Origin: Candidatus Omnitrophota bacterium
GTDB taxonomy: Bacteria > Omnitrophota > Omnitrophia > Omnitrophales > Aquincolibacteriaceae
Length of the DNA stretch: 64,000 bases
Assembly (NCBI GenBank): GCA_003140935.1
Contig: PLLJ01000011.1
Span: forward strand, 2,634 to 66,633
Reading direction: 5' to 3'
Part shown: in pieces, positions 14,041-63,657 of the stretch
Position numbering within the stretch: position 1 is the stretch's first letter
Layout of the letters: each line of letters starts with the position of its first letter
Translations under genes and position numbers: made by a program
The notes under the pieces: model-generated
Databases searched by the model: none
The model's input: only the letters and a program-made list of their open reading frames with translations
Told to the model about the DNA's origin: nothing

Positions 14041-14134
14041 CTAGACTATCCTTGCCTAAAATTTTTCCCTAGATGGTTGGCAAGGATTGCCCCAATTTCA
14101 GATTTTCTGAAATTGATAAGAATTGGGACTAAAG
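14041..14134 (+). repeat. 95-nt hairpin-containing repeat element, copy A (gene-proximal end 3 nt before the AI-2E transporter ATG)
   Basis: GACTATCCTTGCC...GGTTGGCAAGGATTGCCCCAATTTCAGAttttCTGAAATTGATAAGAATTGGGACTAAAG; perfect 10-bp hairpin CAATTTCAGA/TCTGAAATTG; matches copies B, C, D in reverse complement. Confidence 0.85.
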
Positions 14135-14136
14135 CC

Positions 14137-15189
14137 ATGAAACGCGAGCAATTTATCTCTTTTTTCTTCATTGGCATCCTGGGTTTTATTGTCTACGAGG
14201 TTTTTAATATTTTCGCGCCGTTTTTCACGGCTATTTTCTGGGCGGCGATCCTCGCATTCGCATTTTATCCTCTCTATGAAAAACTGCGCAAATGGTTCCC
14301 TAAACGGAATAATTCCATCGCGCTCCTTATGACGCTCGCCGTGTTCCTCATCGTCGTCCCGCCGCTCATTTATGTCATCATCAACATGACCACCCAGGTC
14401 ATCGAATTTTCCCAGTGGGCTTACGGCTACGTTCGTGATGGAAAATTGGAACAGCTGGTCGAACAGGTCCGGACGCATCCCTGGTTCCAGAACATCCAGA
14501 CCCACATCTTCGCGTCACAAACGCTCAAAGAAAGCTTGTCTTCGTGGTCCCTCGGAACCATCAAGACTCTCGGAAATCTCGCCGCGACTCAGGCCGGGAC
14601 TTTTACCAAGAATATCTTCTTTGTCATTTTGAATGTTTTCTTCATGTCCTTCCTGACCTTCATTTTTTTTAAACATGGGGAAAGGATCTACAATTTCATT
14701 TACGAGATCGCGCCGTTCGAGAAAGAGACCAAAAAGGCTCTTTTCAAACAAATCCATGAAACGTTTGTCGCAGTCATCCGGGGACAACTCCTGACCAGCA
14801 TCACGCAGGCGGCCGTGGCGGGCATCATTTTCACAGCTTTGGGGGTCCCACTCCCGCTTTTTTTCACATTCCTGATCTTCCTGACCTCGCTCATCCCAAT
14901 CCTCGGCGCGGCAAGTGTGTGGTTTCCGATCGCAGTTTATCTTTTGATCATGCATCTCTATGGCAAGGCGATCGTTCTTTTCGTGCTGGGTTTTTTCGGG
15001 ATCAGCCTCATTGATAATTTCATGAAACCGGCCATCATCGGAGAGAGGACCAAACTTCCTTATTTTCTTCTTTTTTTTGGGATCATGGGCGGGATGAAAT
15101 TTTACGGCTTGATGGGGATCTTCCTGGCACCGGTAGTGCTCTCGATCTTCTTCGCCTTGATCAAGATCTACCGCGAGAAATACGTCTGA
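14137..15189 (+). CDS. AI-2E family transporter (PerM/YhhT-like permease)
   Basis: ~350 aa polytopic membrane protein with AI-2E family topology; table ORF over-extends through the repeat, true start MKREQF at 14137. Confidence 0.85.
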   Translation: MKREQFISFFFIGILGFIVYEVFNIFAPFFTAIFWAAILAFAFYPLYEKLRKWFPKRNNSIALLMTLAVFLIVVPPLIYVIINMTTQVIEFSQWAYGYVRDGKLEQLVEQVRTHPWFQNIQTHIFASQTLKESLSSWSLGTIKTLGNLAATQAGTFTKNIFFVILNVFFMSFLTFIFFKHGERIYNFIYEIAPFEKETKKALFKQIHETFVAVIRGQLLTSITQAAVAGIIFTALGVPLPLFFTFLIFLTSLIPILGAASVWFPIAVYLLIMHLYGKAIVLFVLGFFGISLIDNFMKPAIIGERTKLPYFLLFFGIMGGMKFYGLMGIFLAPVVLSIFFALIKIYREKYV

Positions 15190-15264
15190 TCTTTCAGTAT
15201 ATTCTTCCTTTTTAAGGCCCCGCCCCGTCCGGCAGGCAAGGCGACCTGAGGAATCGACCCTTCC

Positions 15265-16401
15265 CTAATCTCCGAGGATCTTTGTCTCCTGACCGATCTG
15301 AATGCCTTTCATCAGAGATTGAATATCTTCCGGTGACGGACTTGCAGCAATGGCGGTTTCTTGGCTGATCCGTCCAGCCTTCCAAAGCTCCAAAAGCGAC
15401 TGGTCCATCGTCTGCATTCCTTCTTCGCGAGCATTGCGGATCGCTTGCGGGATCTTGTCGATCTTTTTCTCGAGGATCAGCTGCTTGATCGTATAATTTC
15501 CCAGAAGCACCTCGCTCGCAGGCACGAGTGTTTTCCCGTCCTTAGCCCCTAGAAGTTTCTGGACCATAATGCAGGACATGTTGGCCGCAAAATAACGCAA
15601 GACCGCGTCTCTCTCCTGGGGAGGGAAAAACCCGAGAACGCGATCAAAAACCTGGCTCGCGGACTGGGCGTGAACGGTGGAGATCACAAGTCTGCCTACC
15701 TCGGCTGAGGAAAGTGCGAAACTGAAGGATTCCGCGTCTCGCATCTCACCGATGACGATCACGTCGGGGGACTGACGCACCATGTATTTCAGGGCCGAAC
15801 CAAAACTTTCTGCATCGCGTCCGATCTCGCGCTGCTGAATGAGACACTTTTTGTCTTCGTGCATATATTCAATAGGATCTTCGATCGTGAGAATATGTTT
15901 TTGGACACTTTCGTTCATGGTCCGGATCATAGCCGAAACTGTGGTGGTCTTCCCGGAAGAGACCGTTCCCCCGATCAAAACAATGCCGGATTTTTCGAGT
16001 GCGACCCTTTTTAGGATGGGCGGTAGCCCGAGCTCCTCGAAACTCGGAATGCCTCTCCATAGCAACCGGAACACCAGGGAGATATCCCCCTGCTGGAAGA
16101 ATGCATTGGCCCGAAAACGGCAGTCCTTTTCGCGAAAGGAGAAACCGAAATCCACGCTTTTGTTTTTTTGAAGAATCTCCTTCTGCGTGGGATCCAGAAG
16201 CCCGCCCACAAGTTCACGGATCTCTACTGCAGAAGGTGCCTTCAAGTTTAACGATAGCAACTGCCCTCCAAGGCGCATACGAGGGGACGAACCCGCCTTT
16301 AAAAAAACATCCTGTCCCCTTTGTTCAATGACCTTTTCAAGGCAGGATTTCAAGAAAGCATTCGTATCCATGAGACTCCTTTCATGCTGCGCATCTTTCA
16401 A
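15265..16401 (-). CDS. pilT: type IV pilus retraction ATPase PilT-like
   Basis: Walker A GGTVSSGKTTT, Asp box, His box typical of PilT/PilU secretion ATPases. Confidence 0.85.
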   Translation of the reverse strand: MKDAQHERSLMDTNAFLKSCLEKVIEQRGQDVFLKAGSSPRMRLGGQLLSLNLKAPSAVEIRELVGGLLDPTQKEILQKNKSVDFGFSFREKDCRFRANAFFQQGDISLVFRLLWRGIPSFEELGLPPILKRVALEKSGIVLIGGTVSSGKTTTVSAMIRTMNESVQKHILTIEDPIEYMHEDKKCLIQQREIGRDAESFGSALKYMVRQSPDVIVIGEMRDAESFSFALSSAEVGRLVISTVHAQSASQVFDRVLGFFPPQERDAVLRYFAANMSCIMVQKLLGAKDGKTLVPASEVLLGNYTIKQLILEKKIDKIPQAIRNAREEGMQTMDQSLLELWKAGRISQETAIAASPSPEDIQSLMKGIQIGQETKILGD

Positions 16402-16549
16402 AACTGTAATTCATTTTAACAGTCTGACAAGGGCACTGCAATAGCCCTTTCGCCCTTGAGGGAAAATAGATTTCCTTTTTATATCTAACTTGGCTATCAT
16501 AATAACATTCCTGTTTAAAGAGGCACGTGAATTTCTGAGGGCGCGCAAC

Positions 16550-17932
16550 ATGAGGATCACGGAGAAGACCCCGGCGGAAGAGATCTACAAAAAAGCCTAC
16601 CACCTCTACCAATTCCGCATCCTCACGATTCTCTTCCTCATTCCTCTTTATGTCTTGACCTGCAAATGGGGAAATTTCACGATCGAAAATCTTTGGTCGC
16701 TTTATGGCGTGATCGCGGTCGAGCTTTTCGTCAACCGCCCTTACAAGGTTTTTTTTCGCGATTCACGATCGGGGACCCAAGCCCTGATTGGTTCGGTTGG
16801 TATCGATTTTTTGGCAGAAACCGCCGCCCTGCATCTTTTGGGGAACGTCGATCTTTTCATTTTTACTTCCTGTTTCTTCATCTCCATCGTTTACTGCGCA
16901 TTGAATCTCCCGACCATCCTGACCCTGCAAATGGCCACACTCGCTTCGGCCCTGTATGCGGGGCTGATCGTTCTCGGACGTTTTCATATCATCCCCAACA
17001 CCGTCTCGCTCGGACCCGACTTGAATCAGGTCCAAGAAACCGCCATCATCTTCCGGCACATCGCTTTTTTCTACCTGATTGCGATTTTCATAAGTTTCCT
17101 GTCTTCCGCTCTCATGAAAAAGGACGAGCGTCTCGAGGAGCTCCTTCGGGAACTCCGGAGAACGAGCGATAAGGTCAAGTACGCTTATCATATACAGACT
17201 GATTATTTCGCCCGTATGAGTCACGAGATCCGGGCGCCGCTGAACTCGATCCTGGGCTTTTCCCAGCTCTTACTCGAAAACCCGACCGAACCGCTCACAG
17301 AAAAACAAAAAGATTTTCTCTCCCGTGTCGAGCGAAGCGCCAAACATCTTCGCGAACTGATCAATGATGTTCTCGATCTGTCAAAGATCGAGTCCAAAAA
17401 AGCGAGCCTGGAACTCCACGAGATCGAGCTTGTTAAGATCATCCATACAGCCATCGAAGTTTTTAATGAAGAAGCCCTCACGAAACGTCTGCTCTTGGGG
17501 TTTACAAAAAAACCGCTCAATCTCCGAATCATGGCGGACGAACTCAAGATCAGACAGGTGCTTTACAATCTCATTTCCAACTCCATCAAATTCACCCATC
17601 AAGGTTTTGTCTCTATTGCCTTGGAGAAAGAGACCGATGGCGGAGCAAGGATCATGGTGGAAGATTCGGGGCCCGGAATTGCCTCACAAGATCAAGCGGC
17701 TATCTTCCAGCCTTATGAGGTGACAGGGCGAACGATTGATAAGGGCGGCGGGAAGGGAACAGGATTGGGACTTGCCATCAGCAAAAAATTAGTGGAGATG
17801 CACGGCGGAAAGATCTGGGTCGAAAGTGAGCCCGGAAGAGGAGCCCGGTTCATTGTCACGCTCCCGCCGGTACCTCCGACGCCGAAGCCCGAGGGAAATG
17901 CCTTGCCAGCAGACCCCGCCGCGACCGATTAG
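16550..17932 (+). CDS. membrane sensor histidine kinase (HisKA + HATPase_c)
   Basis: N-terminal TM helices; H-box HEIRAPLNSILGF; N, G1, G2 boxes (DSGPGI, GGGKGTGLGLAISK); start at ATG 16550 with GAGGG RBS. Confidence 0.8.
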   Translation: MRITEKTPAEEIYKKAYHLYQFRILTILFLIPLYVLTCKWGNFTIENLWSLYGVIAVELFVNRPYKVFFRDSRSGTQALIGSVGIDFLAETAALHLLGNVDLFIFTSCFFISIVYCALNLPTILTLQMATLASALYAGLIVLGRFHIIPNTVSLGPDLNQVQETAIIFRHIAFFYLIAIFISFLSSALMKKDERLEELLRELRRTSDKVKYAYHIQTDYFARMSHEIRAPLNSILGFSQLLLENPTEPLTEKQKDFLSRVERSAKHLRELINDVLDLSKIESKKASLELHEIELVKIIHTAIEVFNEEALTKRLLLGFTKKPLNLRIMADELKIRQVLYNLISNSIKFTHQGFVSIALEKETDGGARIMVEDSGPGIASQDQAAIFQPYEVTGRTIDKGGGKGTGLGLAISKKLVEMHGGKIWVESEPGRGARFIVTLPPVPPTPKPEGNALPADPAATD

Positions 17933-17950
17933 TGCCGCTCTCCGGCAGTG

Positions 17951-18262
17951 CTAGACTTTTTTCATCCCTTCGCAGTAATGTTGACTTCTTTCCGTTTTCC
18001 AGTTCAAGGGAAAATCGCGGCACTGCGTGGGTCTTGCAGCATAGACCGTACAACCGGTTGGCCCAAGAAAGAGACACGTTTCATCCGGATTTTTTTTAAG
18101 CACAAGATGCTGCCGATCCATGAGAAGGCAATACGTCTCCGTGAACGGGTAAATGTCCATCTCAAGACACGCGGCAAGGCGTTCGACATCTCCCTTTTTA
18201 AGATAGACAAACCCGGGTTGCCTGCAACAGGCACTGCAGCGCTGGCATTGGAAGGTAGGCAT
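17951..18262 (-). CDS. YkgJ-family Cys-cluster (Zn/Fe-binding) protein
   Basis: FQCQRCSACCRQ...CLFLGPTGCTVYAARPTQCRDFP pattern of the YkgJ/UPF0153 family; start placed at internal ATG to avoid overlap with upstream gene. Confidence 0.6.
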   Translation of the reverse strand: MPTFQCQRCSACCRQPGFVYLKKGDVERLAACLEMDIYPFTETYCLLMDRQHLVLKKNPDETCLFLGPTGCTVYAARPTQCRDFPLNWKTERSQHYCEGMKKV

Positions 18263-18350
18263 GAGAAAAGGGACTCGCCCCTCGGGATTCGTCTGGGTTT
18301 CTCGCTTTTTACGAGTCCCTAGTCCCGAGGAACAAGTCCCTCTTGATGGT

Positions 18351-18692
18351 TTATTTTGAAAGCTGTTGTTCGACGAAATCACCGACCACGGGTAGTTTGT
18401 AACGCTCACCTTTATAGGCCTTCACCATCAACACGATCCAGAGCACGATGCTTAGGGGCCAGAGAAGCAGGTTGGCCAGGACTCCCAGAACCGGAATGAA
18501 CCCGATGACCAAAGTGATGATGAAAAGACCGAGAAACGTCACGAGAGACTGCATCGCGTGGAAACGCACGAATGCATTTTTTTGCTCAAGCAACAGAAAA
18601 ACAAGCCCCGTGAGCCATCCCAAAGCATAGCAGAGAAGCCCTTCGAGATTTTCCGTGACACCCAAAACCGTATTTTTATTTTCGTCTGCCAT
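18351..18692 (-). CDS. DUF4870-family small membrane protein
   Basis: FHAMQS motif and 3 TM helices typical of DUF4870. Confidence 0.7.
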   Translation of the reverse strand: MADENKNTVLGVTENLEGLLCYALGWLTGLVFLLLEQKNAFVRFHAMQSLVTFLGLFIITLVIGFIPVLGVLANLLLWPLSIVLWIVLMVKAYKGERYKLPVVGDFVEQQLSK

Positions 18693-18711
18693 CTGGAACC
18701 CCCCTTATTTT

Positions 18712-18872
18712 TAGTCCCAATTCTTATCAATTTCAGAGAATCAGAAATTGGGGCCATCTTTGTCCCAACCTTGTAAAAAACTCAAAGGTGGTTGGGACTA
18801 TACTGATTACCACTCATTTTAAATAAAAATCAGTATGTCTACCATTTGAGAAAAAAAGCCGAGACAAGGATA
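18712..18872 (-). repeat. repeat element copy B with ~70-nt internal insertion (gene-proximal end 19 nt upstream of DUF4870 ATG)
   Basis: TAGTCCCAATTCTTATCAATTTCAGAgaaTCAGAAATTGGGGCCATCTTTGTCCCAACC...GGTTGGGACTATA...GACAAGGATAG; flanking inverted ends TAGTCCCAA / TTGGGACTA. Confidence 0.8.
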
Positions 18873-19063
18873 GAAGTTCATTGTGGAATATTGTACCTTA
18901 CTTCCAGGAAAAAACGATACCCTTCTTTCTCTGACAAGATTAAAATAAGCCCGGTTTCGCCGACAATGTTCCACACCCGTTGTAAATATTAGACTTATAT
19001 ATGATGCACCGGATGTGGCAAGGGCGGCTACTTGCCCCCTGCATCCCAAAAAAGGAGACTGTT

Positions 19064-19459
19064 ATGCCTACCGTTTTCACCAAAATCCTTGCGGGAGAAA
19101 TTCCCGCCCACAAGATCCTCGAAAACGACGAATATCTCGCGTTCCTCGATATCCGTCCCATAAATCCCGGCCACACGCTCGTCATTCCAAAACAAGAGAT
19201 CGATTATATCTTTGATATTGAAGACGACCTTTTAAAGGGGCTCGTCGTCTTCGCTAAGAAGGTCGCCAAGGCCCTTGGCAAGACCATCCCCTGTAAGAAG
19301 GTCGGCGTAATGGTCGCAGGGTTGGAAGTCCCTCACGCCCACATTCATCTGATCCCGATCATAGAAAGTCTTGCTGAGCTTAATTTCGCGCGCGCAAAAG
19401 CCATGCCCCAGGAAGAACTTGCCGTGATCGCTGCCAAGATGCGGGCAAATCTAAAGTAG
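19064..19459 (+). CDS. HIT-family (histidine triad) nucleotide hydrolase
   Basis: HAHIHLIP histidine triad; GGAG RBS before ATG 19064. Confidence 0.85.
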   Translation: MPTVFTKILAGEIPAHKILENDEYLAFLDIRPINPGHTLVIPKQEIDYIFDIEDDLLKGLVVFAKKVAKALGKTIPCKKVGVMVAGLEVPHAHIHLIPIIESLAELNFARAKAMPQEELAVIAAKMRANLK

Positions 19460-19461
19460 GT

Positions 19462-20058
19462 TCAGGCGGTTTTCAGGAAAGCTGAGAGAAGTTCGCGGTA
19501 GGTGTGCGTGACCGGAAATCTCGGAAATTGGCGAACGATCTTCTCGGGAGGACGAAAGAGTATCCCATGGTCGGCGGTCCGGAGCATGGCGATGTCGTTA
19601 TAGGAATCCCCCGCGGCGACAACCTTGAACCCGAGACCTTGGATCCCCCGCACAGCTTCTTTCTTGCCATTTTTTTGACGTAAATGGTAATTCGCAATAA
19701 AACCTTTGGGGTTCACCGAAAGCCAATTGCAAAAAAGGGTCGGGTATCCCATTTTTTTCATCATCGGTCCGGCAAATTCGTAATAAGTGTCGGAAAGAAT
19801 GATGACCTGATATCTTTTCTGGAGTTTTCGCAAGAATTCCTTCGCCCCCGGGAGTGGGTTCATGCGCTTGATCACAGCCTGAATATCGCAAAGCTTGATC
19901 CCTTCTTTCTTCAGGATCGCAAGCCGGTAGCGCATGAGCTTATCGTAGTCAGGTTCATCGCGCGTGGTGATCTCCAGCGCTTGGATGCCGGTCTTCCTTG
20001 CGACGTTGATCCATATCTCCGGGATCAACACGCCTTCCAGATCAAGACAACAGATCAT
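19462..20058 (-). CDS. thrH: phosphoserine phosphatase / homoserine phosphotransferase ThrH-like (HAD family)
   Basis: MICCLDLEGVLIPEIW...AAGDSYND near-collinear with ThrH. Confidence 0.8.
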   Translation of the reverse strand: MICCLDLEGVLIPEIWINVARKTGIQALEITTRDEPDYDKLMRYRLAILKKEGIKLCDIQAVIKRMNPLPGAKEFLRKLQKRYQVIILSDTYYEFAGPMMKKMGYPTLFCNWLSVNPKGFIANYHLRQKNGKKEAVRGIQGLGFKVVAAGDSYNDIAMLRTADHGILFRPPEKIVRQFPRFPVTHTYRELLSAFLKTA

Positions 20059-20176
20059 GTTTTACTCCTCCGATCGGTTCGAGGCGGGAATTATATCCGA
20101 ACGCGGAATCTTTGAGAAACAATCTTTTGCTGCATCTCAATGCGGACGATTGATAATCCCCATGTAAGGGCGCGTG

Positions 20177-20965
20177 CTATGCAAAATGGTTCACGGGACC
20201 CATACCCTGCCCGATGCCGGGACCCGTGCGAATGGCGCGTGTAATGAACTTTTTGGCGAGCGTGATCGCTGAAAAAAGGTCCTTTCCTTTGGCGAGCTCG
20301 GCGGTAATAGCCGCAGAATATGTGCAGCCGGTCCCATGCGTTTGCTGTGTCCTGATCCGGGGAGCTTTGAATCTATGGATCTGACCTTCTCGCCATAAAA
20401 GATCCATGGCTTCCCCCGGAAGATGGCCACCCTTGACAAGCACCGCTTGAGGACCGAATCCTGCGATGATCCGTGCGGCTTTTTCCATGGACTCCGGATC
20501 ACGAACCTTGATCCCGCTCAAAACTCCGGCTTCACCAAGATTGGGCGTGATCAAAGCGGCATAAGGCAGCAGTTCTTTGATGAAAATATGAACATCGCTT
20601 CGCTTGAAAAGCGGCGCACCGTGTTTGCTCACCATGACCGGATCCACCACGAGTGGAAACCGGAATTTTCTGGCCGCCCTCGCGACCGCCCGGAGAACCT
20701 TTGCATCCCCCAGCGCTCCCGTCTTGGCCGCTTGAGGCGGGATGTCCGTAAGCACGGCTTCGAGTTGGCGAATCACTTGGGTGGGTTTCATTACGTAAAC
20801 GGCCTGGATGCCGCGTGTGTTCTGAGCTGTGAGAAGCGTGATCACCGCCATTCCGTAGACCTTATGCTGGTGAAAGGTCTTGAGATCGGCTTGAATGCCA
20901 GCTCCGCCTGAAGGATCGGAACCGGCGATGGAAAGCGCCCTCGGAATTACTTGTGTCGCGTTCAT
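20177..20965 (-). CDS. thiD: hydroxymethylpyrimidine/phosphomethylpyrimidine kinase
   Basis: SIAGSDPSGGAGIQADLKTF and GTGCTYSAAI ribokinase-family motifs of ThiD. Confidence 0.9.
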   Translation of the reverse strand: MNATQVIPRALSIAGSDPSGGAGIQADLKTFHQHKVYGMAVITLLTAQNTRGIQAVYVMKPTQVIRQLEAVLTDIPPQAAKTGALGDAKVLRAVARAARKFRFPLVVDPVMVSKHGAPLFKRSDVHIFIKELLPYAALITPNLGEAGVLSGIKVRDPESMEKAARIIAGFGPQAVLVKGGHLPGEAMDLLWREGQIHRFKAPRIRTQQTHGTGCTYSAAITAELAKGKDLFSAITLAKKFITRAIRTGPGIGQGMGPVNHFA

Positions 20966-21028
20966 TTTTTAGGGGATCGTGGTATGGTGGGCATCCTCGA
21001 TGGAAGTCATAAATTCCATGGGGATACT

Positions 21029-21550
21029 CTACTCAAGAACTTGTTTGAAAAACTCGACGAACATTTCTGGCGTGACGCCGGTCGGAAGTTTGACGGGCCT
21101 ACCAGGCTGGGGCGGGTGAAGGAAAAAAGAAGGATATCCCTGAACCCTGTACTGAAACGCGATATCATCCTCGCGCCTTCCGGATTCGGGGTTGATATTG
21201 ACCTTGATCATGTCCTTCATCATATCTATGACAAGGGGTGACGACAGCACCCCTTTTTCGAACTTGCGGCAATAAGGGCACCACCCGACGTTCATGTAAA
21301 CGACCATCGGTTTATTGGTCCTCTTGTATTCTTCGACCGCCTGGTCATACCCGGAGGCACCCTGGTACCAACCTTCGGACCATTGACCCGTAGCCTGCGT
21401 CCCGACAGGCGCTGAAACGGATGGCTCATGCGACGCTTGAGGATCCGCGGCGTAGCTTCCCGGCCCCATAAGTAAAAAAGAGAGCAAAAAAAGTGAAGCG
21501 ATCTTTTTAAAATTCACAAAACCCCCGAGATATTTTTTGTATTCTAACAT
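21029..21550 (-). CDS. exported thioredoxin-fold protein (WCPYC active site)
   Basis: Signal peptide KKIASLFLLSFLLMGPGSYA then thioredoxin-like region with WCPYC. Confidence 0.7.
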   Translation of the reverse strand: MLEYKKYLGGFVNFKKIASLFLLSFLLMGPGSYAADPQASHEPSVSAPVGTQATGQWSEGWYQGASGYDQAVEEYKRTNKPMVVYMNVGWCPYCRKFEKGVLSSPLVIDMMKDMIKVNINPESGRREDDIAFQYRVQGYPSFFLHPPQPGRPVKLPTGVTPEMFVEFFKQVLE

Positions 21551-21683
21551 GGAGTCTTCCGGAAAATACGTTTCTTTTCGAGCCCCAACCCACCTATTCA
21601 TTCGGACAAGGCTGAGACGACATGCGGACCCTTAAAATAAAAAGATGCTCAGTTGCGGAGCTTCCGGTTCCGGGGCAAAGTCC

Positions 21684-23161: not shown

Positions 23162-23165
23162 AGAA

Positions 23166-23543: not shown

Positions 23544-23666
23544 AATCCCCTCCTTTGGTTTATTTTTATGACGTCTCTAGTTATCGACTATTTCCCAAGA
23601 AGTTTAATTGCAAGCCTGGGCCGCGTCAAGAATCACTTTTAAGTTGAAAATCGACGCACCGCGGAT

Positions 23667-35512: not shown

Positions 35513-35607
35513 TTATAGTCCCAATTCTTATCAATTTCAGAGAATCTGAAATTGGGGCAATCCTTGCCAACCCTTTAGGAAAAGAATGAAAGACAAGGAT
35601 AGGACCT
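35513..35607 (-). repeat. repeat element copy C (gene-proximal end ~50 nt upstream of acyl-CoA dehydrogenase ATG)
   Basis: TATAGTCCCAATTCTTATCAATTTCAGAgaaTCTGAAATTGGGGCAATCCTTGCCAACCctttaggaaaagaatgaaaGACAAGGATAGGACC; perfect 10-bp hairpin plus second stem GGCAATCCTTGCC/GACAAGGATAGG. Confidence 0.85.
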
Positions 35608-41184: not shown

Positions 41185-42200
41185 TGTAACTTGCTCACGG
41201 CGGCAAGAAGGTCCTTGGTCTCAGGATATTTCTTGAGTTGTTCGATCAGCGCGCTGATCGCTTCGATGGGCTTAAGCCCGGCCAGGGCACGGCGTATCCG
41301 GCGCGCCGGTTCCAGCTCCTGGGACGTAAAAAGAAGTTCTTCCTTGCGCGTTCCGCTTTTGGATATATCCACTGCCGGATAAATGCGTTGATTCGAGATC
41401 TCACGCGATAGAAAGATCTCCATATTACCCGTTCCCTTGAATTCTTCAAAAATAAGCTGGTCCATGCGGCTCCCGGTATCCACCAGGATCGTCGCAAGGA
41501 TCGTCAGTGACCCTCCGTGTTCGATCTTACGAGCAGACCCGAAGATCCGCCGTGGCACTTCCATGGAACGCGCGTCCACGCCCCCGGAAAGGGTCCGGCC
41601 GCTGGAACGTTGCTCAGCGTTATGCACGCGCGCCAAACGGGTCAAAGAATCGACCAGGATCATCACATCCGCACCTGCCGAGACCTCGCGATACACTTGC
41701 TGCATGAGTTCCCGGGCGGTCTGGATATGATGGTCATAAGTCTGGTCGGACGAAGACCACCGGACCTCGGCCGTCACACTACGGCGAAAATCCGTAACTT
41801 CCTCCGGTCTTTCGTCGATCAAAAGACAATAAAGCTTCATCTCCGGCCGGCTTTTGGCGACGGCCTGGCAAAGATGCTTGAGAAACGTCGTTTTTCCGGA
41901 ACCCGGAGGAGCCACGATCAGCCCCCGCTGTCCCATGCCGATCGGAGTGATAAGATCCATGACGCGCATCGTAAGTTCCTTGGAGCCGTCTTCGAGATGG
42001 ATCCGTGGCGAAGGATCGACGGCCGTACTGGCAAAAAACTTTTGTTCATCTTCGGCGATCACGCGTCGGGGTTCCCCATGCGGTGGCCGGTGAGAAGGAC
42101 GATGGGAATGAGTGCCTCGGCTTGGGTGCCGTTCGCTGCGATACCTTGAATCGGTATTGGGACCACGCCCTGAACGCTCTCGGTGTTCAAAGTTTCTCAT
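41181..42200 (-). CDS. rho: transcription termination factor Rho lacking the canonical N-terminal RNA-binding domain
   Basis: C-terminal RecA-like ATPase domain collinear with E. coli Rho residues ~140-419 (Walker A, Q-loop, R-loop); only ~55 aa of Arg/Ser/His-rich sequence precede it; ATG 42200 forms ATGA overlap with ABC-F stop. Confidence 0.85.
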   Translation of the reverse strand: MRNFEHRERSGRGPNTDSRYRSERHPSRGTHSHRPSHRPPHGEPRRVIAEDEQKFFASTAVDPSPRIHLEDGSKELTMRVMDLITPIGMGQRGLIVAPPGSGKTTFLKHLCQAVAKSRPEMKLYCLLIDERPEEVTDFRRSVTAEVRWSSSDQTYDHHIQTARELMQQVYREVSAGADVMILVDSLTRLARVHNAEQRSSGRTLSGGVDARSMEVPRRIFGSARKIEHGGSLTILATILVDTGSRMDQLIFEEFKGTGNMEIFLSREISNQRIYPAVDISKSGTRKEELLFTSQELEPARRIRRALAGLKPIEAISALIEQLKKYPETKDLLAAVSKLQ

Positions 42201-51858: not shown

Positions 51859-51951
51859 GATCTTCCTTAATTAAAAAAAATGAATCAGAAATTATGACAG
51901 TCCAAGTCGCCCTTACTAAAAAGAAACAAAGACTTGGGCATCACGGCCTCA

Positions 51952-53211: not shown

Positions 53212-53238
53212 AAAAGGCGGTTGCGAAGACGGTCCGGA

Positions 53239-54296: not shown

Positions 54297-54345
54297 TTCC
54301 TCCTTGAGGGTCTTTAATGAATTGATGCAAAACGCGGATGTCGGA

Positions 54346-55071: not shown

Positions 55072-55073
55072 GA

Positions 55074-55958: not shown

Positions 55959-56899
55959 GAGTGTTTCACTGTCTCCTTAAGTTCCGCCGCGACTACCTCG
56001 TCGGGCTTCGTTTTCCAGCGATCATGCATCCACCCCCATTGCTCCGGGTAACGGCGGATCACTTCTTCAAAATCTTTCATCCAGGCTTCTGTGTATTTCC
56101 GGATCGAAGCCGTCCGGTCATTATCTTCGATCTTCGGCCGTATCAAGTTACCCAGAAAGAGCTTGTAACGATTTCCAGGCATCCGGATCATACAGGCTGG
56201 CAGGATCGGCGCTCCCAAGGCCATGGCGAACTTTACCGGCGCCACGGACGTATAAGCCGGCCTTCTAAAAAAATCCACAAAAACACCACGCACCCGGTCC
56301 ATATCCTGATCGGGTAAAAGGCCGACGATCTCACCAGCCTTTAAATGCTTATGGATCTGCCGGGCAGCTTCATCCTGATAAATCGTCTGGACCCCCACAG
56401 AATTCCGCAGGCCCACGATCCACCGGTTGTACGGCTCATAATAGATCCGTCGACCGACCACGGCACCCTGGAAACCTTGCAAGCCAAAAATCCCGGCTAA
56501 AAGTTCCCAGTTGCCCATGTGTGGCGTCATTATAATGAGCCCTTTCCCTTCTTGCAAAATATCTTTGCAGAAAGAATAGGCTTCACCGGTCTCGATAAAA
56601 GAGTCCGCTTGATCACGTGAGAGTGTAGCAAAACGCAAAAAATCCACGGCCGTCTGGAGCATATGCCCCATCACCCGGCGGCCAATCGTTTTCAACTCCT
56701 CGGGACTTTTTGTGCTGCCGTACGCAAACTTCAGATTTTCAAGGATCTTTGTCCTTTGGCGCGAAACGACCCGGTATCCTAAATATCCGATCCCGTTCGC
56801 GAGCGCCAATGCCCAACTTCGTGGCAGAACCAGCAAAAGCCCCGCTCCAAGCCTTGCTAAAAGATAAAGCGGATAGCGATAAAATTTGCGCTTGGCCAT
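55955..56899 (-). CDS. lipid A biosynthesis (Kdo2-lipid IVA) acyltransferase LpxL/HtrB family
   Basis: PHMGNWE acyltransferase motif and overall LpxL-like length. Confidence 0.75.
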   Translation of the reverse strand: MAKRKFYRYPLYLLARLGAGLLLVLPRSWALALANGIGYLGYRVVSRQRTKILENLKFAYGSTKSPEELKTIGRRVMGHMLQTAVDFLRFATLSRDQADSFIETGEAYSFCKDILQEGKGLIIMTPHMGNWELLAGIFGLQGFQGAVVGRRIYYEPYNRWIVGLRNSVGVQTIYQDEAARQIHKHLKAGEIVGLLPDQDMDRVRGVFVDFFRRPAYTSVAPVKFAMALGAPILPACMIRMPGNRYKLFLGNLIRPKIEDNDRTASIRKYTEAWMKDFEEVIRRYPEQWGWMHDRWKTKPDEVVAAELKETVKHS

Positions 56900-56906
56900 A
56901 GGCGGA

Positions 56907-57878
56907 TTAAACCCGTCCCGCCCTCATAAGGTCCTGAACGTCCAAGAGGCCTACGACGCGCCGGACTTTGTCCACTACCGGCAATTCATCGATGCGGAGG
57001 GTCTCCATGATATGGAACGCTTCTTCTGCAAGTCTTTCCTTCCGGATATAGCGAGGTTTGAGCGTGGCTAATTGGACCACGGGCCGGTTCAGGATCTTTT
57101 CGCCCCGGGATCTCAGGTGACGCCGGAGATCTCCGTCCGTAAAGACGCCCATCAATTTTCCATGCCCGTCGACGATCGTACAACTTCCAGCCCTTGAGGC
57201 CGTGATCTTAAGAAGCGCCTGACGCACTGTCGTCTTCGCCCCCACGAGCGGATTGGCCTTCCCTGTACGCATGATCTCCCCAACCTTCAGTAACCGTCTT
57301 CCGAGACTTCCCGCCGGATGCAACTCCGCGAAATCTTCGGAGCAAAAATCTTTTTTCTTAAGAAGTGAAAGCGCAAGCGCGTCCCCCATCGCAAGTGAAG
57401 CGGTCGTCGAAGCGGAAGGCGCCAAATTCAAAGGACAAGCTTCGCGCCGCACACCGAGATCAAGCACTATGTCCGCATTTTTCCCAAGAGTGGATCCCGG
57501 GACGCTTGTCAGCGCGACGATTTTCACGCCTTTTTTCTTTATCAGAGGGAGAAGTCTCACGATCTCTTCACTTTCTCCGCTTTGCGAGATCGCGATCACA
57601 AGGTCCTTGGAAGTCACCATCCCAAAATCACCGTGGACCGCCTCGGCGGGATGAAGGAAAAAAGCAGGGGTTCCCGTGGAGGCCATGGTCGCGGCGATCT
57701 TGCGGGCGATAAAACCTGGTTTTCCCATCCCGGTAAGTATCACGCGCCCTTTGCAATCCGCCATCCATTGAACTACCGTCTCAAAATTCTTGCCGATCTT
57801 GGGGCGAAGCCGCGAGATGGCACGAGCTTCGATCTTGAGAACCTCTTTGGCAAGTTGTATTACATTCGATGTTTTCAT
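56907..57878 (-). CDS. kdsD: arabinose-5-phosphate isomerase (SIS + tandem CBS)
   Basis: GMGKPGFIARKIAATMASTGTPAFFLHPAEAVHGD SIS motif and C-terminal CBS pair. Confidence 0.88.
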   Translation of the reverse strand: MKTSNVIQLAKEVLKIEARAISRLRPKIGKNFETVVQWMADCKGRVILTGMGKPGFIARKIAATMASTGTPAFFLHPAEAVHGDFGMVTSKDLVIAISQSGESEEIVRLLPLIKKKGVKIVALTSVPGSTLGKNADIVLDLGVRREACPLNLAPSASTTASLAMGDALALSLLKKKDFCSEDFAELHPAGSLGRRLLKVGEIMRTGKANPLVGAKTTVRQALLKITASRAGSCTIVDGHGKLMGVFTDGDLRRHLRSRGEKILNRPVVQLATLKPRYIRKERLAEEAFHIMETLRIDELPVVDKVRRVVGLLDVQDLMRAGRV

Positions 57879-57882
57879 AGTT

Positions 57883-61148
<3,266 letters not shown>

Positions 61149-61152
<4 letters not shown>

Positions 61153-62168
61153 GCCTTCCGGATCGCTTCTTCAAGTTCTTCGGGGGCGACCGTCGCAGTG
61201 CCAAGTTTTCCGACCACAATACCGGCCGCAAGATTCGAAATCTTCGCTGCTTCTTGCATTTTCGCGCCCGCCGCCAAGGCAACCGCAAGGGTCGCGATCA
61301 CTGTATCCCCGGCGCCGGAAACATCGTAGACTTCGCGCGCAGCGGTCGGAACGCGGGTGAGCTTTTTATTTTTTTCAAAAAGCGCCATCCCATCTTCACC
61401 GAGCGTGATCAGTACGGAATCAAGCTTCAATTTTTTCATCAGCCCCCACCCCACTTCTTCGAGCTCCGGGGTTTTGTAACAAGAAACATGAGTGCGTTCA
61501 TAACCCATGTAGGCTTCGCTACGGTTCGGGGTGATGCAGGTCACCCCCCGGTAATAGAGAAAATGTTTTTCCTTGGGATCCACGAGCACGGGTTTTTTGA
61601 ATTTCCTGGCAAGGCGGACGATCTCTTTTAAAAGGAAGGGCTGCATCACGCCTTTTCCGTAATCCTCAAGGATCACGACATCCATTCGGTTGATATTCTC
61701 GCGGACAAATTTCAGGATCTTCAAAAGATGCGCCTTGGAGACATCGTCCGTCTTTTCACGGTCAAAGCGGACGACCTGCTGGGAGTGTGCGATCACGCGG
61801 GTTTTGAGGGACGTCGGACGTGCCGGGTCACAAACGATCCCGCCCGTCTCGATCCCCTGCTTACGCATCGCCTTAAGTAACATGCGCCCATAAAGATCGC
61901 GGCCCACCACTCCGCAAGGGCAAACCTGGCCTTGGAGAGAACGGATATTATTAGCCACATTAAGCGATCCCCCCAGCATAAAAGATTCCCTCTCAACCTT
62001 GACCACCGGAACCGGTGCCTCGGGGGAAATACGCTTCACGCTCCCCCAGACAAATTGATCCAGAATGAAATCCCCGATTACAAGGATACGGACCTCCTGG
62101 AACCTTTCAAGGATTTCGAGAAAGCGTCTTTTTTCCAAGCTGCTCAGCGGTAAGAATGCGGTCTTCAT
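61149..62168 (-). CDS. D-glycero-beta-D-manno-heptose-7-phosphate kinase (RfaE domain I, PfkB family)
   Basis: VIGDFILDQFVWGSVKRISPEAPVPVV and C-terminal PfkB motif DVSGAGDTV; start at ATG 62168 leaves room for the downstream terminator. Confidence 0.75.
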
Positions 62169-62184
62169 GAGCCCCTTTCGCACT

Positions 62185-62229
62185 AAAAAAGAGGACAGGC
62201 TTGTCTCTCGCTGCAACTCGCCTGTCCTT
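62185..62229 (-). terminator. rho-independent terminator after fmdB (minus strand)
   Basis: Minus-strand reading: AGGACAGGC-19 nt loop-GCCTGTCCT followed by CTTTTTT. Confidence 0.6.
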
Positions 62230-62347
62230 TAATAATTCGGAATTATAGAGTTGCATTCTAACACCAGAGAGAAGCTATGTCAATGAAAGGAAACCTCTGT
62301 AAGTCTTTTAAATATGATGGGTTAGAAATGATTCGAGGCGGAAAATT

Positions 62348-62635
62348 TTATTTCTTCTTCGTATCACAGGACGAGCAATCGCCGGAGCAGGCCGGGGCCG
62401 AGGAAGTATCCTTTTTGGGAACATCCTTCTTGGCCGACTCCTTGTAACCCTTGGAGCGGTAATCGGTCTGATAAAAGCCACTTCCCTTGAAAAGCACCCC
62501 CGCTCCTCCGGAAATTATGCGCCGGACTTTGGCTTTTCCACATTTCGGACATTTCTTGACGGGCTTGTCGTTCATGGACTGGTATTTCTCGAACCGGTGC
62601 TCGCATGCACCGCATTCATACTCATAAGTCGGCAT
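62348..62635 (-). CDS. FmdB-family zinc-ribbon protein
   Basis: MPTYEYECGACEHRFE...CPKCG CxxC pairs typical of FmdB regulatory zinc ribbon. Confidence 0.8.
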   Translation of the reverse strand: MPTYEYECGACEHRFEKYQSMNDKPVKKCPKCGKAKVRRIISGGAGVLFKGSGFYQTDYRSKGYKESAKKDVPKKDTSSAPACSGDCSSCDTKKK

Positions 62636-62753
62636 AGATTATTTCTCCCTTGGGATCGGTATTTGGAACGAGTTCGATTTTATCACGTGAGACACAAAGA
62701 AAGAACGGGTTAATTTGCGAGTGAGAACCTTTCAAACAATGAAGTCCGTCCGT

Positions 62754-63545
62754 TTAGAAACCGGTGCCGGGTTCGTAGCCGACAAGCGTGGCGACGACTT
62801 CACCGAGAACGGGGACCTTGACCTTCATCACAAGCGGGATGCGGCGCTCGTCCATGCTCATCCATCCATGGACTTTTCCGCGTCGGACAAAAAAACCTTC
62901 GAACAAAATGATCGGTTCGACCTCGACCGCCTGAAAAACACCCACAGGGTCCATCTTCATTTCTTTGATGTCATGCGTAAGGACTTCAAGATCCCAGTTC
63001 TTTTCGTCTGCGTTCACCGGGATCAGAGTCTTGGAATCGGGTTTGAGATCCTGGAGCCGGAGCCAGTAGCAGCACGAGATCTGGTCCTGAACATGCTTGG
63101 GGATGAACATTTCTTTGCGGCTGTTGTCCTTGCGGGAATAAAAGCGGCCGATGTGTTCGTCCTGGTCATATTCCATCAACTCATCCGTCCAGTAGCGGCT
63201 CTCTTTGATCTTTTTTTCATACCGAAGGGAGTGAAAATGCTCGGCGTCCATATAGGTGTGGTGCGTATCCCGGACCTTGTAGATCCAGTCGATCACCGCT
63301 CGCGAGCGAATATTGATCTCGATGTGATAGGCGTCGCGCCCGTTCACCTTAACGAGTTCTTTGACCTGGGACTCCGCTTCCCCCACGACGATTCCGAGAT
63401 AACTGATTTCAAATTTTATTTTTTCCCCGAGGAAGATCTTCTTAACGGGTTTTTCGGAGTAGGGGAAGATCTTTTCCGCTTCCTGAGCAGAGCCTATCGG
63501 AATAAGAAAGATCAACGCTAAGATGAGAAATGCGTATTTTTTCAT
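62754..63545 (-). CDS. exported DUF3108-like protein
   Basis: Signal peptide MKKYAFLILALIFLIPIGSA; table ORF over-extends through repeat copy D, true ATG at 63545. Confidence 0.65.
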   Translation of the reverse strand: MKKYAFLILALIFLIPIGSAQEAEKIFPYSEKPVKKIFLGEKIKFEISYLGIVVGEAESQVKELVKVNGRDAYHIEINIRSRAVIDWIYKVRDTHHTYMDAEHFHSLRYEKKIKESRYWTDELMEYDQDEHIGRFYSRKDNSRKEMFIPKHVQDQISCCYWLRLQDLKPDSKTLIPVNADEKNWDLEVLTHDIKEMKMDPVGVFQAVEVEPIILFEGFFVRRGKVHGWMSMDERRIPLVMKVKVPVLGEVVATLVGYEPGTGF

Positions 63546-63562
63546 GGGAATCAGTTCCGGAT

Positions 63563-63657
63563 AGCCCCAATACCAATCAATCGAAGCAAAGCTGAGATTG
63601 GGGCAATCCTTGTCAACCATTTTGGAAATAAAATCTTAGACAAGGATAGCCCCGTCA
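63563..63657 (-). repeat. repeat element copy D, diverged (gene-proximal end 18 nt upstream of DUF3108 ATG; distal arm overlaps stop of next gene)
   Basis: CCCCAATACCAATCAATCGAAGCaaaGCTGAGATTGGGGCAATCCTTGTCAACCattttggaaataaaatcttaGACAAGGATAGCCCC; second stem GGGGCAATCCTTGTC/GACAAGGATAGCCCC (14/15 bp). Confidence 0.8.

Follow-up and report, generated by a model that had tools for sequence, protein, structure and literature searches.

A small hairpin-forming mobile DNA element of Candidatus Omnitrophota with a seemingly target-matching internal triplet

A stretch of 64,000 nt from a Candidatus Omnitrophota contig (PLLJ01000011.1, here called the window) carries a two-hairpin repeat whose four full copies all point towards a start codon, which raises the question of whether the repeat is a leader RNA that controls the downstream genes or a mobile element. 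Both readings had been offered in a first-pass annotation of this DNA. Our analysis shows that the repeat is a small non-coding mobile DNA element and not a dedicated leader RNA. It is probably a non-autonomous element of ~84 nt, specific to Candidatus Omnitrophota, that is moved as a guide-directed folded single strand.

Copies in the window and their structure

The following copies were found in the window; their limits take in the left target triplet, and bit scores are those of a covariance model trained on 109 copies found elsewhere.

14046-14131, minus strand: copy A, full element (87.9 bits)
18712-18873, plus strand: copy B, composite element (63.6 bits)
18763-18839, plus strand: module of ~75 nt nested in copy B, absent in the orthologue of relative L067 and present in L092
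35516-35602, plus strand: copy C, reference full element (90.5 bits)
63562-63649, plus strand: copy D, full element (87.3 bits)
3448-3498, minus strand: copy E, hairpin-2-only remnant (nhmmer E = 2e-9; 29.7 bits)
~51895-51941, plus strand: copy F, lone hairpin-2 type module (nhmmer E = 1e-4; 27 bits)
42125-42166, minus strand: copy G, decayed left-half remnant (10.3 bits, E = 0.48; a weak match with limits set by eye)

The places given for copies A to D in the first-pass annotation were recovered by the covariance model (E-values 1e-23 to 4e-16), by a repeat finder, which grouped B, C, and D into one direct family with A as inverted partner (A versus C, 94% over 68 nt), and by the 20-mer TAGTCCCAATTCTTATCAAT, which occurs three times versus 0 expected. 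The count of four was right for full copies but had missed the partial or decayed pieces E, F, and G. As had been described, the TAGTCCCAAT end of each full copy faces the ATG of a gene, and Pfam agrees with the names assigned: the AI-2E transporter (ATG at 14137, 5 nt from the 5′ end of copy A), the minus-strand DUF4870 gene (18692, 19 nt from copy B), the acyl-CoA dehydrogenase (35461, 54 nt from copy C), and the DUF3108 gene (63545, 16 nt from copy D).

In copy C, which was examined by single-strand fold, the target triplet TAG (35516-35518) is followed by an insert of 84 nt (35519-35602) with hairpin 1 at 35532-35554, a guide triplet C-A-A at 35558-35560, and hairpin 2 at 35558-35602, the last letters of which are again TAG. 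Copy A has its target TAG at 14129-14131 and an insert of ~83 nt (14046-14128) comprising hairpin 1 (14093-14115) and hairpin 2 (14046-14089). Copy D lies in the target context GGATAG|CCCC, with hairpin 1 at 63578-63600 and hairpin 2 at 63604-63649, and its single-strand fold has a z of -4.5. The difference reported for its hairpin 1 is real but is not a one-off rebuild: hairpin 1 has two major variants, and the tandem G.A/A.G mismatch variant of copy D is present in ~26 of the 109 copies.

Copy B has its target TAG at 18712-18714, hairpin 1 at 18728-18750, and hairpin-2 arms at ~18756-18764 and ~18863-18873. Its second stem, which had been taken as rebuilt to GTCCCAACC/GGTTGGGAC, instead represents the extra hairpin module nested in hairpin 2. 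This module interrupts the left arm and contains two further hairpins, TCCCAACC...GGTTGGGA and ACTGATT...AATCAGT; since both junctions carry the repeated TGTC, its limits are ambiguous by ~4 nt. Copy B aligns with an orthologous plain copy in L067, and the composite form recurs in L092 at a non-orthologous site. By synteny, copy E corresponds to a full copy in relative L004, of which it is a decayed orthologue. It lacks the hairpin-1 half, was also recovered by the repeat finder as inverted repeats I4 and I5, and is placed between two minus-strand genes, its missing-hairpin-1 end facing the stop end of the 3556-4221 gene and not a start codon. Copy F reads CAG TCCAAGTC ... GACTTGGG CAT, and in relative L024 a further full copy is inserted inside its counterpart. 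At the syntenic site of copy G (GG TCCCAATACCGAT...), L052 has a full CGG-class copy.

The element starts with TCC(C)AAT, has a modal insert length of 84 nt, and forms two hairpins on one strand. The earlier description of both hairpins and their compensatory differences holds across the family: in 109 distinct copies 92% of the cells pair, versus 28-45% when the partners are slid, and 16 of the 21 pairs carry compensatory changes. Double-sided changes number 454 versus 172 in shuffles, and 0 of 500 shuffles reached the observed number; together with a mutual-information scan, these figures strongly confirm the compensatory changes. On the consensus strand G.T outnumbers A.C by 64 to 31, and the column pair 4-43 is U.G in 106 of 109 copies. 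The G.T wobbles mark this strand, which runs antisense to the downstream genes of the window, as the better-folding one. The modal insert of 84 nt also equals 28 codons with an open frame.

Filled and empty sites and position relative to genes

Comparison with syntenic loci of 80-90% identity to the window revealed clean pairs of filled and empty sites in both directions. Missing from relatives L067, L071, and L055 are copies A and C: the site orthologous to copy A is empty in L067, and those orthologous to copy C are empty in L071 and L055, where a single ATAG is found. Conversely, L049, L098, L055, and L071 carry copies at sites that are empty in the window. Empty sites have one target triplet, filled sites the triplet on both sides of an insert of ~84 nt. 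Further insertions were also seen, and copies nest within one another and form head-to-tail arrays. Together with the spread over 20 Omnitrophota assemblies, these observations support the MITE/REP-like mobile element that had been one of the initial suggestions. Some copies are old and common to species, namely B (with L067) and E (with L004).

A genome scan detected the element in at least 115 stretches, from 20 species-level Omnitrophota or unclassified assemblies among the matches listed, and our sample comprises 134 pattern matches from 20 Omnitrophota assemblies; it was not found in the viral contigs searched. We classified 115 copies by their neighbouring genes: where these are co-directional, 47 copies are antisense and 34 sense (p = 0.18), while a further 28 copies have divergent neighbours and 6 have convergent ones. 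Intragenic insertion is rare (1 of ~175 copies, in-frame inside a gene in L090). Copies favour start-containing intergenic regions, and their 5′ ends abut start codons more often than expected (15 versus 8.3, p ~0.005). In several genes the element is directly fused to the ATG (GGGA-CTA-TG), so that translation must initiate from element sequence. The proposed rule that the repeat always lies 5′ of a start codon in the same orientation thus holds for the four window copies and leaves a weak family-wide trace, but as a strict rule it is a small-sample effect. Neither promoter nor terminator signals accompany the element.

Target triplets and the internal guide

The element inserts into intergenic DNA, directly 3′ of a Y-R-G trinucleotide. 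The flank is constrained only at positions -3 to -1 (Y, R, and G, with G in 97%) and is random further out. The element's own end is a trinucleotide of the same kind as the left flank, and a triplet C-x1-x2 between the hairpins is complementary to both. Sub-families with differing internal triplets occupy correspondingly differing target triplets, giving the covarying flank/guide classes TAG/CAA, CGG/CCG, CAG/CTG, and CCG/CGG. Flank and end triplets are identical in 83 of 124 copies; the combination is TAG/TAG in 33 of 43 copies with guide CAA, CGG/CGG in 21 of 24 with guide CCG, and CCG/CCG in 5 of 8 with guide CGG. Flank position 1 pairs with guide x2 as C-G in 56 copies and as U-A in 45, and the middle position of the guide frequently forms no pair: the commonest class has A.A there, and the end of the CTG class T.T.

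The main classes could in principle carry a 3-bp target duplication. The CTG-guide class has mostly CAG, the perfect complement, as flank, its end remains CTG, and the two are identical in only 4 of 16 copies. This CAG...CTG combination recurs at several unrelated loci. Hence the end moves along with the element, and the flank is selected. The insertion site seems to be selected by base-pairing with the matching internal three-letter guide.

How the element may move

Several other explanations were considered. A cis-regulatory leader RNA (riboswitch, attenuator, or protein-binding 5′ UTR) controlling the downstream genes would fit a covarying structure, the mild family-wide excess of 5′ ends abutting start codons, and the four full window copies, which all point to a start codon 5-54 nt off; in hairpin 1, an alternative pairing of CCCAAT with ATTGGG could in principle act as a switch. 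However, sister genomes have the same genes without the element, the downstream genes have unrelated functions, and copies nest, form arrays, and occur in both orientations (47 versus 34) as well as between convergent genes, while the strand that folds better runs antisense to the window's genes. An Rfam search gave no match, in agreement with the first-pass annotation, and no conserved core resembling a ligand pocket is evident beyond positions fixed by the search pattern. We give a leader RNA or fixed protein site almost no probability; as a general property it is refuted by the orientation and presence/absence data, and by the first-pass annotation's own standard, under which scatter over strands would count against it, the leader reading fails. 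It is also very improbable that the copies are independently transcribed small RNA genes or host-domesticated REP-like sites, kept for a host function such as an effect on mRNA stability, translation starts, or nucleoid-protein binding, and not for mobility. The lack of associated promoter or terminator signals, the unfixed orientation relative to genes, the decay of old copies (E, G, and mismatches in B), and the many lineage-specific insertions all speak against it, despite the age of copies B and E, the enrichment in start-containing regions and at start codons, and the genes that must initiate translation from fused element sequence. Any host use would come second to mobility.

Size, intergenic location, and presence/absence pattern are all MITE-like, and the identical triplets on both sides in the major classes, with one copy at empty sites, would match a classical double-strand MITE with a DDE-type transposase, a 3-bp target-site duplication, and hairpins as incidental internal palindromes. 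This is quite unlikely, as the terminal inverted repeats comprise TCC/GGA and nothing beyond, right-terminal sequences vary between sub-families with near-identical left ends, and the stems show compensatory evolution and a strand-asymmetric excess of G.T. Moreover, a duplication cannot explain that the internal triplet covaries with the flank, nor does it fit the CTG-guide class, in which 12 of 16 copies have unlike flank and end triplets and CAG...CTG recurs. Unlikely, though less so, is a mobile hairpin element served by other machinery that reads folded single strands or RNA, e.g., a tyrosine recombinase with folded DNA as its substrate (as for integron attC sites and CTX phage), RNA-mediated reverse transcription, or some novel nuclease/ligase system. 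Conservation of structure and not sequence, with variable stems, is typical of attC sites too, the guide geometry is unlike that of IS608, a G|T crossover point lies inside a helix of left junction and internal sequence, and diverged DUF1016-nuclease paralogues occur in 6 loci, although they do not consistently adjoin copies. On the other hand, the copies are dispersed and not arrayed beside an integrase, their surroundings show no recurring recombinase or reverse transcriptase, and pairing of a short guide with the flanking target, combined with hairpins on a single strand, is the hallmark of the Y1 family among DNA elements known so far.

For the guide-directed single-strand element that we favour, we propose movement as folded single-stranded DNA by an enzyme provided in trans, for which a single-strand transposase of the HUH/Y1 type, as in IS200/IS605 or REP/RAYT systems, is the most plausible candidate. 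This enzyme would recognise the hairpin feet (TCC...GGR), and the internal triplet would serve as a DNA guide that determines where both ends are cut and which target is used, leading to insertion without true target duplication. Such insertion would account for head-to-tail arrays with one common triplet and for copies nested at CGG within the hairpin 1 of others. We infer this mechanism, since no transposase was found: ~0.9 Mb of element-bearing Omnitrophota sequence contained no intact HUH-Y1 protein, and the sequence searched contained no multi-copy transposase family and no RAYT gene flanked by the element. When metagenomes were scanned for left ends without a following hairpin 2, one uninformative match and no autonomous parent came up. 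A Y1-like gene beside a copy in L097 was rejected as mobiliser: the first HUH histidine and the catalytic tyrosine are missing, and the gene is part of a conserved operon that elsewhere is present without elements. The single intact RAYT among the sequences examined, P0010, belongs to another organism, where unrelated palindromes flank it.

IS200/IS605 elements and their gene-less derivatives, the palindrome-associated transposable elements (PATEs), are moved by the Y1 HUH transposase TnpA in a "peel and paste" manner. Like these, the Omnitrophota element lacks terminal inverted repeats, bears a pair of subterminal hairpins on one active strand, inserts immediately 3′ of a short specific sequence that is single in the empty site, and carries an internal guide near a hairpin foot that matches, with some non-canonical positions, both the target and its own 3′-terminal nucleotides. 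Differing guides go with differing targets, and IS608 has been retargeted experimentally by guide changes. IS200/IS605 elements are expected to be strand-biased, whereas no replication-strand bias was detectable here by two weak proxies (orientation 70 of 142 against local GC skew, 66 of 142 against the gene majority). Further differences are the lack of a TnpA or autonomous parent among our findings, a target and guide of 3 nt and not 4-5, a right cleavage point flush with the hairpin-2 extension and not ~10 nt away, and a modular build with extra hairpin modules. In IS608 each of two 4-nt guides lies 5′ of its own hairpin; in the Omnitrophota element the hairpins are dissimilar, and one 3-nt guide between them (3′ of hairpin 1, 5′ of hairpin 2) appears to serve both ends. 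The IS608/REP scheme combines hairpins with guide-to-cleavage-site pairing, non-canonical pairs included, and insertion 3′ of the target without duplication (PMC3201880, PMC6006769).

The Omnitrophota element further resembles REP/BIME/REPIN elements as a high-copy, strictly extragenic, hairpin-forming, species- or clade-specific repeat with a short tag by a hairpin foot that would take part in recognition, with clusters and mosaics of copies, and with possible secondary host effects. REP/BIME/REPIN elements are moved or processed by REP-associated tyrosine transposases (RAYTs), which act in trans and are not carried by the repeat. REPs, however, are GC-rich single palindromes of 20-40 nt with a fixed GTAG or CGTC tag, usually in inverted pairs or alternating orientation, in contrast to the ~84-nt element with its two different AT-rich hairpins, variable guide-covarying tag, and head-to-tail arrays. 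Pneumococcal BOX, Neisseria Correia, and enterobacterial ERIC-type MITEs are likewise small structured intergenic repeats, often within transcription units near gene starts, that can alter the expression of neighbouring genes, and BOX shares a modular build with internal modules variable in number. Correia, ERIC, and RUP differ in having terminal inverted repeats and/or TA duplications, and the way in which BOX moves is unknown; no element of this type is known to have an internal guide that covaries with its target. Rickettsia palindromic elements are also palindromic mobile repeats able to sit in-frame within protein genes, which is exceptional for the Omnitrophota element; they belong to a different phylum and share no sequence similarity with it.

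The position of the element upstream of the four window genes mostly reflects tolerance of insertion in start-proximal intergenic DNA and not regulation. The family-wide excess at start codons is a possible hint of some selection or a host-level role.

A two-hairpin repeat of Omnitrophota genomes

The repeat described here represents a family of mobile elements without an entry in the databases that could be searched, and not a regulatory leader. Four copies with a shared sequence and two inverted repeats had been reported in the first-pass annotation, and reading of the intervals, a repeat finder, 20-mer counts and a covariance model all confirmed them. The repeat finder placed B, C and D in a direct family of 68 nt with A as inverted partner (94% against C), and the left-end 20-mer was seen three times in the window against none expected. 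The covariance model, built from copies in other genomes, scored C, A and D at 87–90 bits and B at 64 bits, and also detected two lone hairpin-2 modules and a doubtful remnant near 42150.

Copies in the window
14046-14131, minus strand: full copy A
18712-18873, plus strand: full copy B
18763-18839: two-hairpin module of ~75 nt nested in copy B
35516-35602, plus strand: full copy C
63562-63649, plus strand: full copy D
3448-3498: partial copy E, lone hairpin-2 module
~51895-51941: partial copy F, lone hairpin-2 module
42125-42166: partial copy G, doubtful remnant

Folding was assessed on an alignment of 109 distinct copies from the matches listed. In the two-hairpin structure 92% of the cells are paired, compared to 28–45% with slid partners, a value inflated for hairpin 2 as copies were chosen for its complementarity; pair-type diversity is unaffected by this choice, and at hairpin-2 positions U-A, A-U, G-C and C-G are about equally frequent. 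Covariation extends to the six inner pairs of hairpin 1, which were free in the search pattern (e.g., G-C in 64 copies and A-U in 34). Overall, 16 of 21 pairs are compensatory, with 454 double-sided changes against 172 in shuffles (0/500 shuffles reach the observed value), so that the compensatory changes noticed earlier hold across the 109 copies. Two details of the earlier description have to be revised. Hairpin 1 of copy D, described as rebuilt, is not a single case but a variant with a conserved tandem G.A/A.G mismatch that recurs in ~26 of the 109 copies, and the "rebuilt" second stem of copy B is the module nested inside its hairpin 2, which is lacking in the orthologous copy of L067, one of the loci syntenic with the window. 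The same composite is found at a non-orthologous site in L092. The mismatch variant reads CGAAGC...GCKGAG (alignment A2 columns 23-24 with 34-35; in copy D, 63583-63585 with 63593-63595). Tandem G.A/A.G mismatches are stable in DNA and RNA hairpins alike, and this one could serve as a recognition feature.

On the consensus strand, G.T exceeds A.C (64 vs 31) and position 4 pairs as U.G with position 43 in 106/109 copies of the matches listed, indicating that this is the strand under folding constraint. It is antisense to all four downstream genes in the window. Folded as DNA, both strands perform well (z = -2.9 to -4.5). Both ends carry a subterminal hairpin, in each case on the top strand, and the termini have only TCC/GGA in common, without terminal inverted repeats.

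A pattern scan with a single genome for each species, in which CCCAAT, ATCAAT and ATTGGGGC were the only fixed parts and the hairpin-1 stem was free, matched at least 115 stretches; the loci from the matches listed and the window together hold 134 pattern matches. All real matches listed trace to 20 species-level assemblies that carry the label Candidatus Omnitrophota/Omnitrophica or unclassified MAG, and two listed matches in other taxa fit no more than the pattern. The viral contigs scanned contained no copies. Rfam gave no match to the window at the gathering threshold, and a permissive search with copy C returned a single chance-level match (E = 4), in agreement with the earlier remark that no Rfam-type motif resembles the repeat. 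No repeats of this phylum are described in the searchable literature.

Other types of hairpin module occur in L049 (1373-1443 and 6205-6279), L061, L099 and within copy B. Those of L061 and L099 have the hairpins CCCCAACC...GGTTGG and GCTGATT...AATCAGC. They have a common style of stem, ACC, A-rich loop and return stem, and are inserted into or beside the main element, which suggests that these genomes harbour a larger superfamily of such modular hairpin elements.

Insertion sites and matched triplets

Nine loci syntenic with the window at 80–90% identity align cleanly across the element junctions. At the site of copy C, L071 and L055 read GGGATT-ATAG-GACCT, while in the window an 84-nt insertion (TCCCAAT...CAAGGATAG) stands between ATAG and GACCT. 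Similarly, L067 lacks copy A, and the window is empty where L049, L098, L055 and L071 (twice) have copies. In the clean filled/empty pairs (A, C, L049, and L098) the empty site holds a single TAG, or CTA on the other strand; L024 and L052 provide further cases. Older insertions are also present: copy B is common to the window and L067, and the decayed remnant E corresponds to an orthologous full copy in L004. In L014, head-to-tail copies have one common triplet, and in L098 and others a copy is nested after the CGG within hairpin 1 of another. Among the matches listed, the two modules (m1 and m2) are arranged as m1-m2 in 109 cases; m1-m1-m2-m2, m1-m2-m2 and m1-m2-m1-m2 also occur. Nested copies have the same orientation and arrays are head-to-tail. 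Insertion polymorphism, nesting and arrays bear out the MITE/REP-like mobile reading that had been one of the options of the first-pass annotation.

Copy D lies between 10-nt direct repeats, GGATAGCCCC (63556-63571 and 63643-63654), indicating that its target resembled a junction of element end and element start. This fits either extended target pairing with the guide region or insertion beside an older remnant.

An unbiased mutual-information scan and tabulation linked three triplets: the one directly left of TCCCAAT, the one that ends the element, and C-x1-x2, which follows ATTGGGG between the hairpins. Constraint outside the element is confined to positions -3 to -1, as Y, R and G (G in 97%), whereas position -4, sequence farther left and the whole right flank are random. 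The covarying internal triplet is a single one, 3′ of hairpin 1 and 5′ of hairpin 2; the scan found no columns 5′ of hairpin 1 that covary with the flank. Position 1 of the target is Watson-Crick with x2 in >90% of the copies (columns 1-46: C-G 56, U-A 45, matches listed). At the middle position, which is often non-canonical, pairing occurs with x1 = C or G, and the most frequent class has A.A.

Internal guide triplets and the flank and terminal triplets that accompany them
Guide CAA: flank/end TAG/TAG in 33/43 copies (matches listed)
Guide CCG: flank/end CGG/CGG in 21/24 copies (matches listed)
Guide CAG: flank/end CAG/CAG in 9/15 copies (matches listed)
Guide CGG: flank/end CCG/CCG in 5/8 copies (matches listed)
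Guide CCA: goes with TGG
Guide CTG: flank usually CAG (perfect complement), end stays CTG; flank equals end in 4/16; several unrelated loci

In the major classes flank and end are identical, a pattern that a target-site duplication would also give. Of the 16 CTG-guide copies among the matches listed, 12 have unlike flank and end triplets, with CAG...CTG recurring. Since this class keeps its CTG end at a CAG flank, the terminal triplet appears to be inherited with the element and the flank to be selected at insertion, which argues against target-site duplication. We show a non-autonomous mobile element that inserts 3′ of Y-R-G, keeps two hairpins on one strand, and carries an internal triplet matched to both its target and its own end.

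Such an element would move as folded single-stranded DNA with an enzyme supplied in trans, and its internal triplet would act as a guide by analogy with IS608 and REP elements. In those systems, guides at the hairpin feet pair, partly non-canonically, with the flanking target and the terminal nucleotides, insertion occurs 3′ of the target without duplication, and a change of the guide changes the target (PMC3201880, PMC6006769). The IS200/IS605 group, including the gene-less PATE, resembles our element in its same-strand subterminal hairpins without terminal inverted repeats, in insertion 3′ of a short sequence present once in the empty site, and in an internal guide that covaries with the target. 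However, IS608 has two tetranucleotide guides, each 5′ of its own hairpin foot, instead of one common 3-nt guide, and two dissimilar hairpins and a modular build are unlike the IS608/REP model. IS200/IS605 elements are also expected to show an orientation bias toward the lagging-strand template, whereas we detected no replication-strand bias relative to local GC skew (70/142) or gene majority (66/142), both weak proxies on 8-kb draft fragments. REP sequences are 20–40 nt GC-rich palindromes with a fixed GTAG or CGTC tag that lie in inverted pairs or alternating orientation; in contrast, the element is ~84 nt long with two AT-rich hairpins, its tag varies (TAG, CGG, CAG, CCG, TGG) and its arrays are head-to-tail. 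A classical DDE-type MITE would likewise be small, non-coding, multi-copy, intergenic and polymorphic between relatives, but carries terminal inverted repeats of ~10 bp or more matching a parent insertion sequence, where the element has TCC/GGA only; its right-end sequence varies among sub-families with the same left end. Because of the single 3-nt guide, the dissimilar hairpins, the modular build and the lack of an enzyme in our searches, we describe how the element seems to work and do not file it as a proven member of the IS608/REP type.

Gene context and start codons

For classification of gene context, elements were masked so that ORFs stop at them and ORFs were filtered on a codon-usage score; without masking, ORFs reading through the element gave 35 false calls of copies inside an ORF. 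None of the 115 element clusters (matches listed) lies inside a called gene. Between co-directional genes, 47 clusters are antisense and 34 sense (p = 0.18), and a further 28 lie between divergent and 6 between convergent genes (all from the matches listed). Compared to the element-free intergenic length, which predicts 80/19/16 co-directional, divergent and convergent sites, the observed 81/28/6 over-represent divergent and under-represent convergent regions (p = 0.006).

In the window, the TAGTCCCAAT end of all four full copies points to a start codon 5–54 nt away, and Pfam agrees with the names given to the downstream genes (AI-2E transporter, DUF4870, acyl-CoA dehydrogenase, and DUF3108). 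The rule drawn from this, that copies always lie 5′ of a start codon in the same orientation, does not extend to the 115 clusters with their antisense, sense, divergent and convergent sites. There is a real, weak and orientation-specific association with start codons: of 75 start-facing cases, 15 have the 5′ end no more than 5 nt from a start codon, against 8.3 expected (p ~0.005), and the 3′ end shows no excess (3/62 against 5.6 expected; both from the matches listed). With real intergenic lengths the effect is ~1.8-fold; it had looked stronger before. At many abutting starts the junction is GGGA-CTA-TG, so that ATG and target triplet overlap, with N-termini that look genuine.

Start-overlapping or near-start junctions were seen in L018, L074, L094, L049, L024 (1140-1218), L011, L115, L082 and L110, and at copy A (14131/14137). 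They read GGGA-CTA-TG or GGGA-CCA-TG, with the target triplet overlapping the start codon or within a few nt of it. With the target triplet at or near the start codon, the element takes the place of the native ribosome-binding region in genes that are apparently intact.

A leader RNA or riboswitch, also raised in the first-pass annotation, would account for copies pointing to starts, as in the window. Against it stand both orientations, convergent sites, unrelated downstream genes, orthologous loci without the element, and the lack of an Rfam match. Promoter readings did not hold either: for a sigma-54 promoter in TTGGCAAGGATTGCC, read by eye, the spacing is wrong, and the TTGACA of a sigma-70 reading occurs in one stem variant only. 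A scan of 13900-19100, covering copies A and B only, gave no excess of promoter-like or terminator-like sites.

The minus strand of the element carries open reading frames, seen earlier as the recurring translation IAPISDSLKLIRIGT, so that mechanical ORF calls extend genes upstream through the element, as in the window ORFs 14011-15189 (+) and 62754-63620 (-). False N-terminal extensions are thus likely in automatic annotation of these genomes. By eye, one in-frame exception was found in L090, where a copy (1631-1717, minus strand) lies in sense within the ORF 1064-2206, a DUF1016_N-plus-nuclease gene, and adds ~28 residues (QSQYRSIEAKLKLGQSWLPSRKKISKPGL) to the linker between the domains. At 84 nt, the modal insert is divisible by three in length; this length and the in-frame copy are reminiscent of Rickettsia palindromic elements.

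Diverged DUF1016_N paralogues (26–59% identity) recur in six loci that bear the element. Their contexts differ, they do not consistently neighbour the copies, and their C-terminal domain looks thermonuclease-like (DGDT...RLRGIDxPE).

DUF1016_N paralogues
L054, 917-2185
L071, 3-1205
L090, 1064-2206
L091, 1996-3240
L099, 1307-2548
L109, 5058-6335

Search for a mobilising enzyme

No intact HUH-Y1 ORF is present in ~0.9 Mb of loci and window. Searches of the same ~0.9 Mb by Pfam revealed no transposase in recurrent families, all-against-all clustering of 2,230 locus ORFs gave no multi-copy transposase, and no RAYT gene in the loci is flanked by the element. A search for the HUH...Y motif in 3,305 ORFs returned only the positive control, P0010. 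A metagenome scan for an autonomous parent, based on left ends without a following hairpin 2, gave one real match (L121), with no transposase downstream; nearly all lone left modules have a diverged hairpin 2.

Using approximate Y1 queries, tblastn detected one gene only, a PF01797 member 45 nt downstream of a copy in L097. It was rejected as mobiliser, as its family has neither the catalytic tyrosine nor the first histidine of HUH any longer and its operon occurs in other organisms without nearby copies.

Genes related to Y1 transposases
L097, 3530-4186, plus strand: Y1_Tnp-fold gene; homologues P0001-P0009 and L116:616-1569
L123 and L124, 5001-5867: RAYT P0010 with HIH and RYI motifs; palindromes in flanks ~4960-5000 and 5870-5960

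The L097 family has only 10 detectable relatives. Its first HUH histidine is replaced (DRIH, RNIH, NKIH), the catalytic tyrosine position is F, L or Y, and many members carry a C-terminal hydrophobic segment. The gene is the first of a conserved operon in which three small proteins are followed by a giant protein of 3,600–9,000 residues. The family looks like a domesticated, non-catalytic transposase fold; a sequence-profile search found no solved structure for it. Its intact relative P0010 is a true RAYT beside its own palindromes, GGGAACGAAAAAGGTCGTCCCC(A)CCGTTCCC, once upstream and twice downstream, as is typical of RAYT/REP systems; it comes from an unrelated metagenome organism and is so irrelevant to our element.

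It is conceivable, though we consider it improbable, that the whole forms a self-guided hairpin element in which one internal 3-nt DNA guide directs both end cleavage and target choice, with at least five specificities evolved in one phylum, a trans-acting enzyme that is not a canonical Y1, and a 5′ end repeatedly co-opted as a portable translation-start region joined directly to start codons (GGGA-CTA-TG). The enzyme, if found, would tell if such hairpins are read by Y1 with one common guide or by another class of enzyme.

For a phylum known from metagenomes only, the element is a new repeat family that can now be annotated, and its dispersed and nested copies could make these genomes harder to assemble and bin. 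The start-codon fusions offer test cases for how genes tolerate or exploit a replaced ribosome-binding region. Guide retargeting has been shown experimentally for IS608 and, to our knowledge, is rarely seen as standing variation. Here, one element family holds a natural series of matched guide/target triplets (TAG, CGG, CAG, CCG, and TGG), which supports retargeting of single-strand elements by mutation of a DNA guide.
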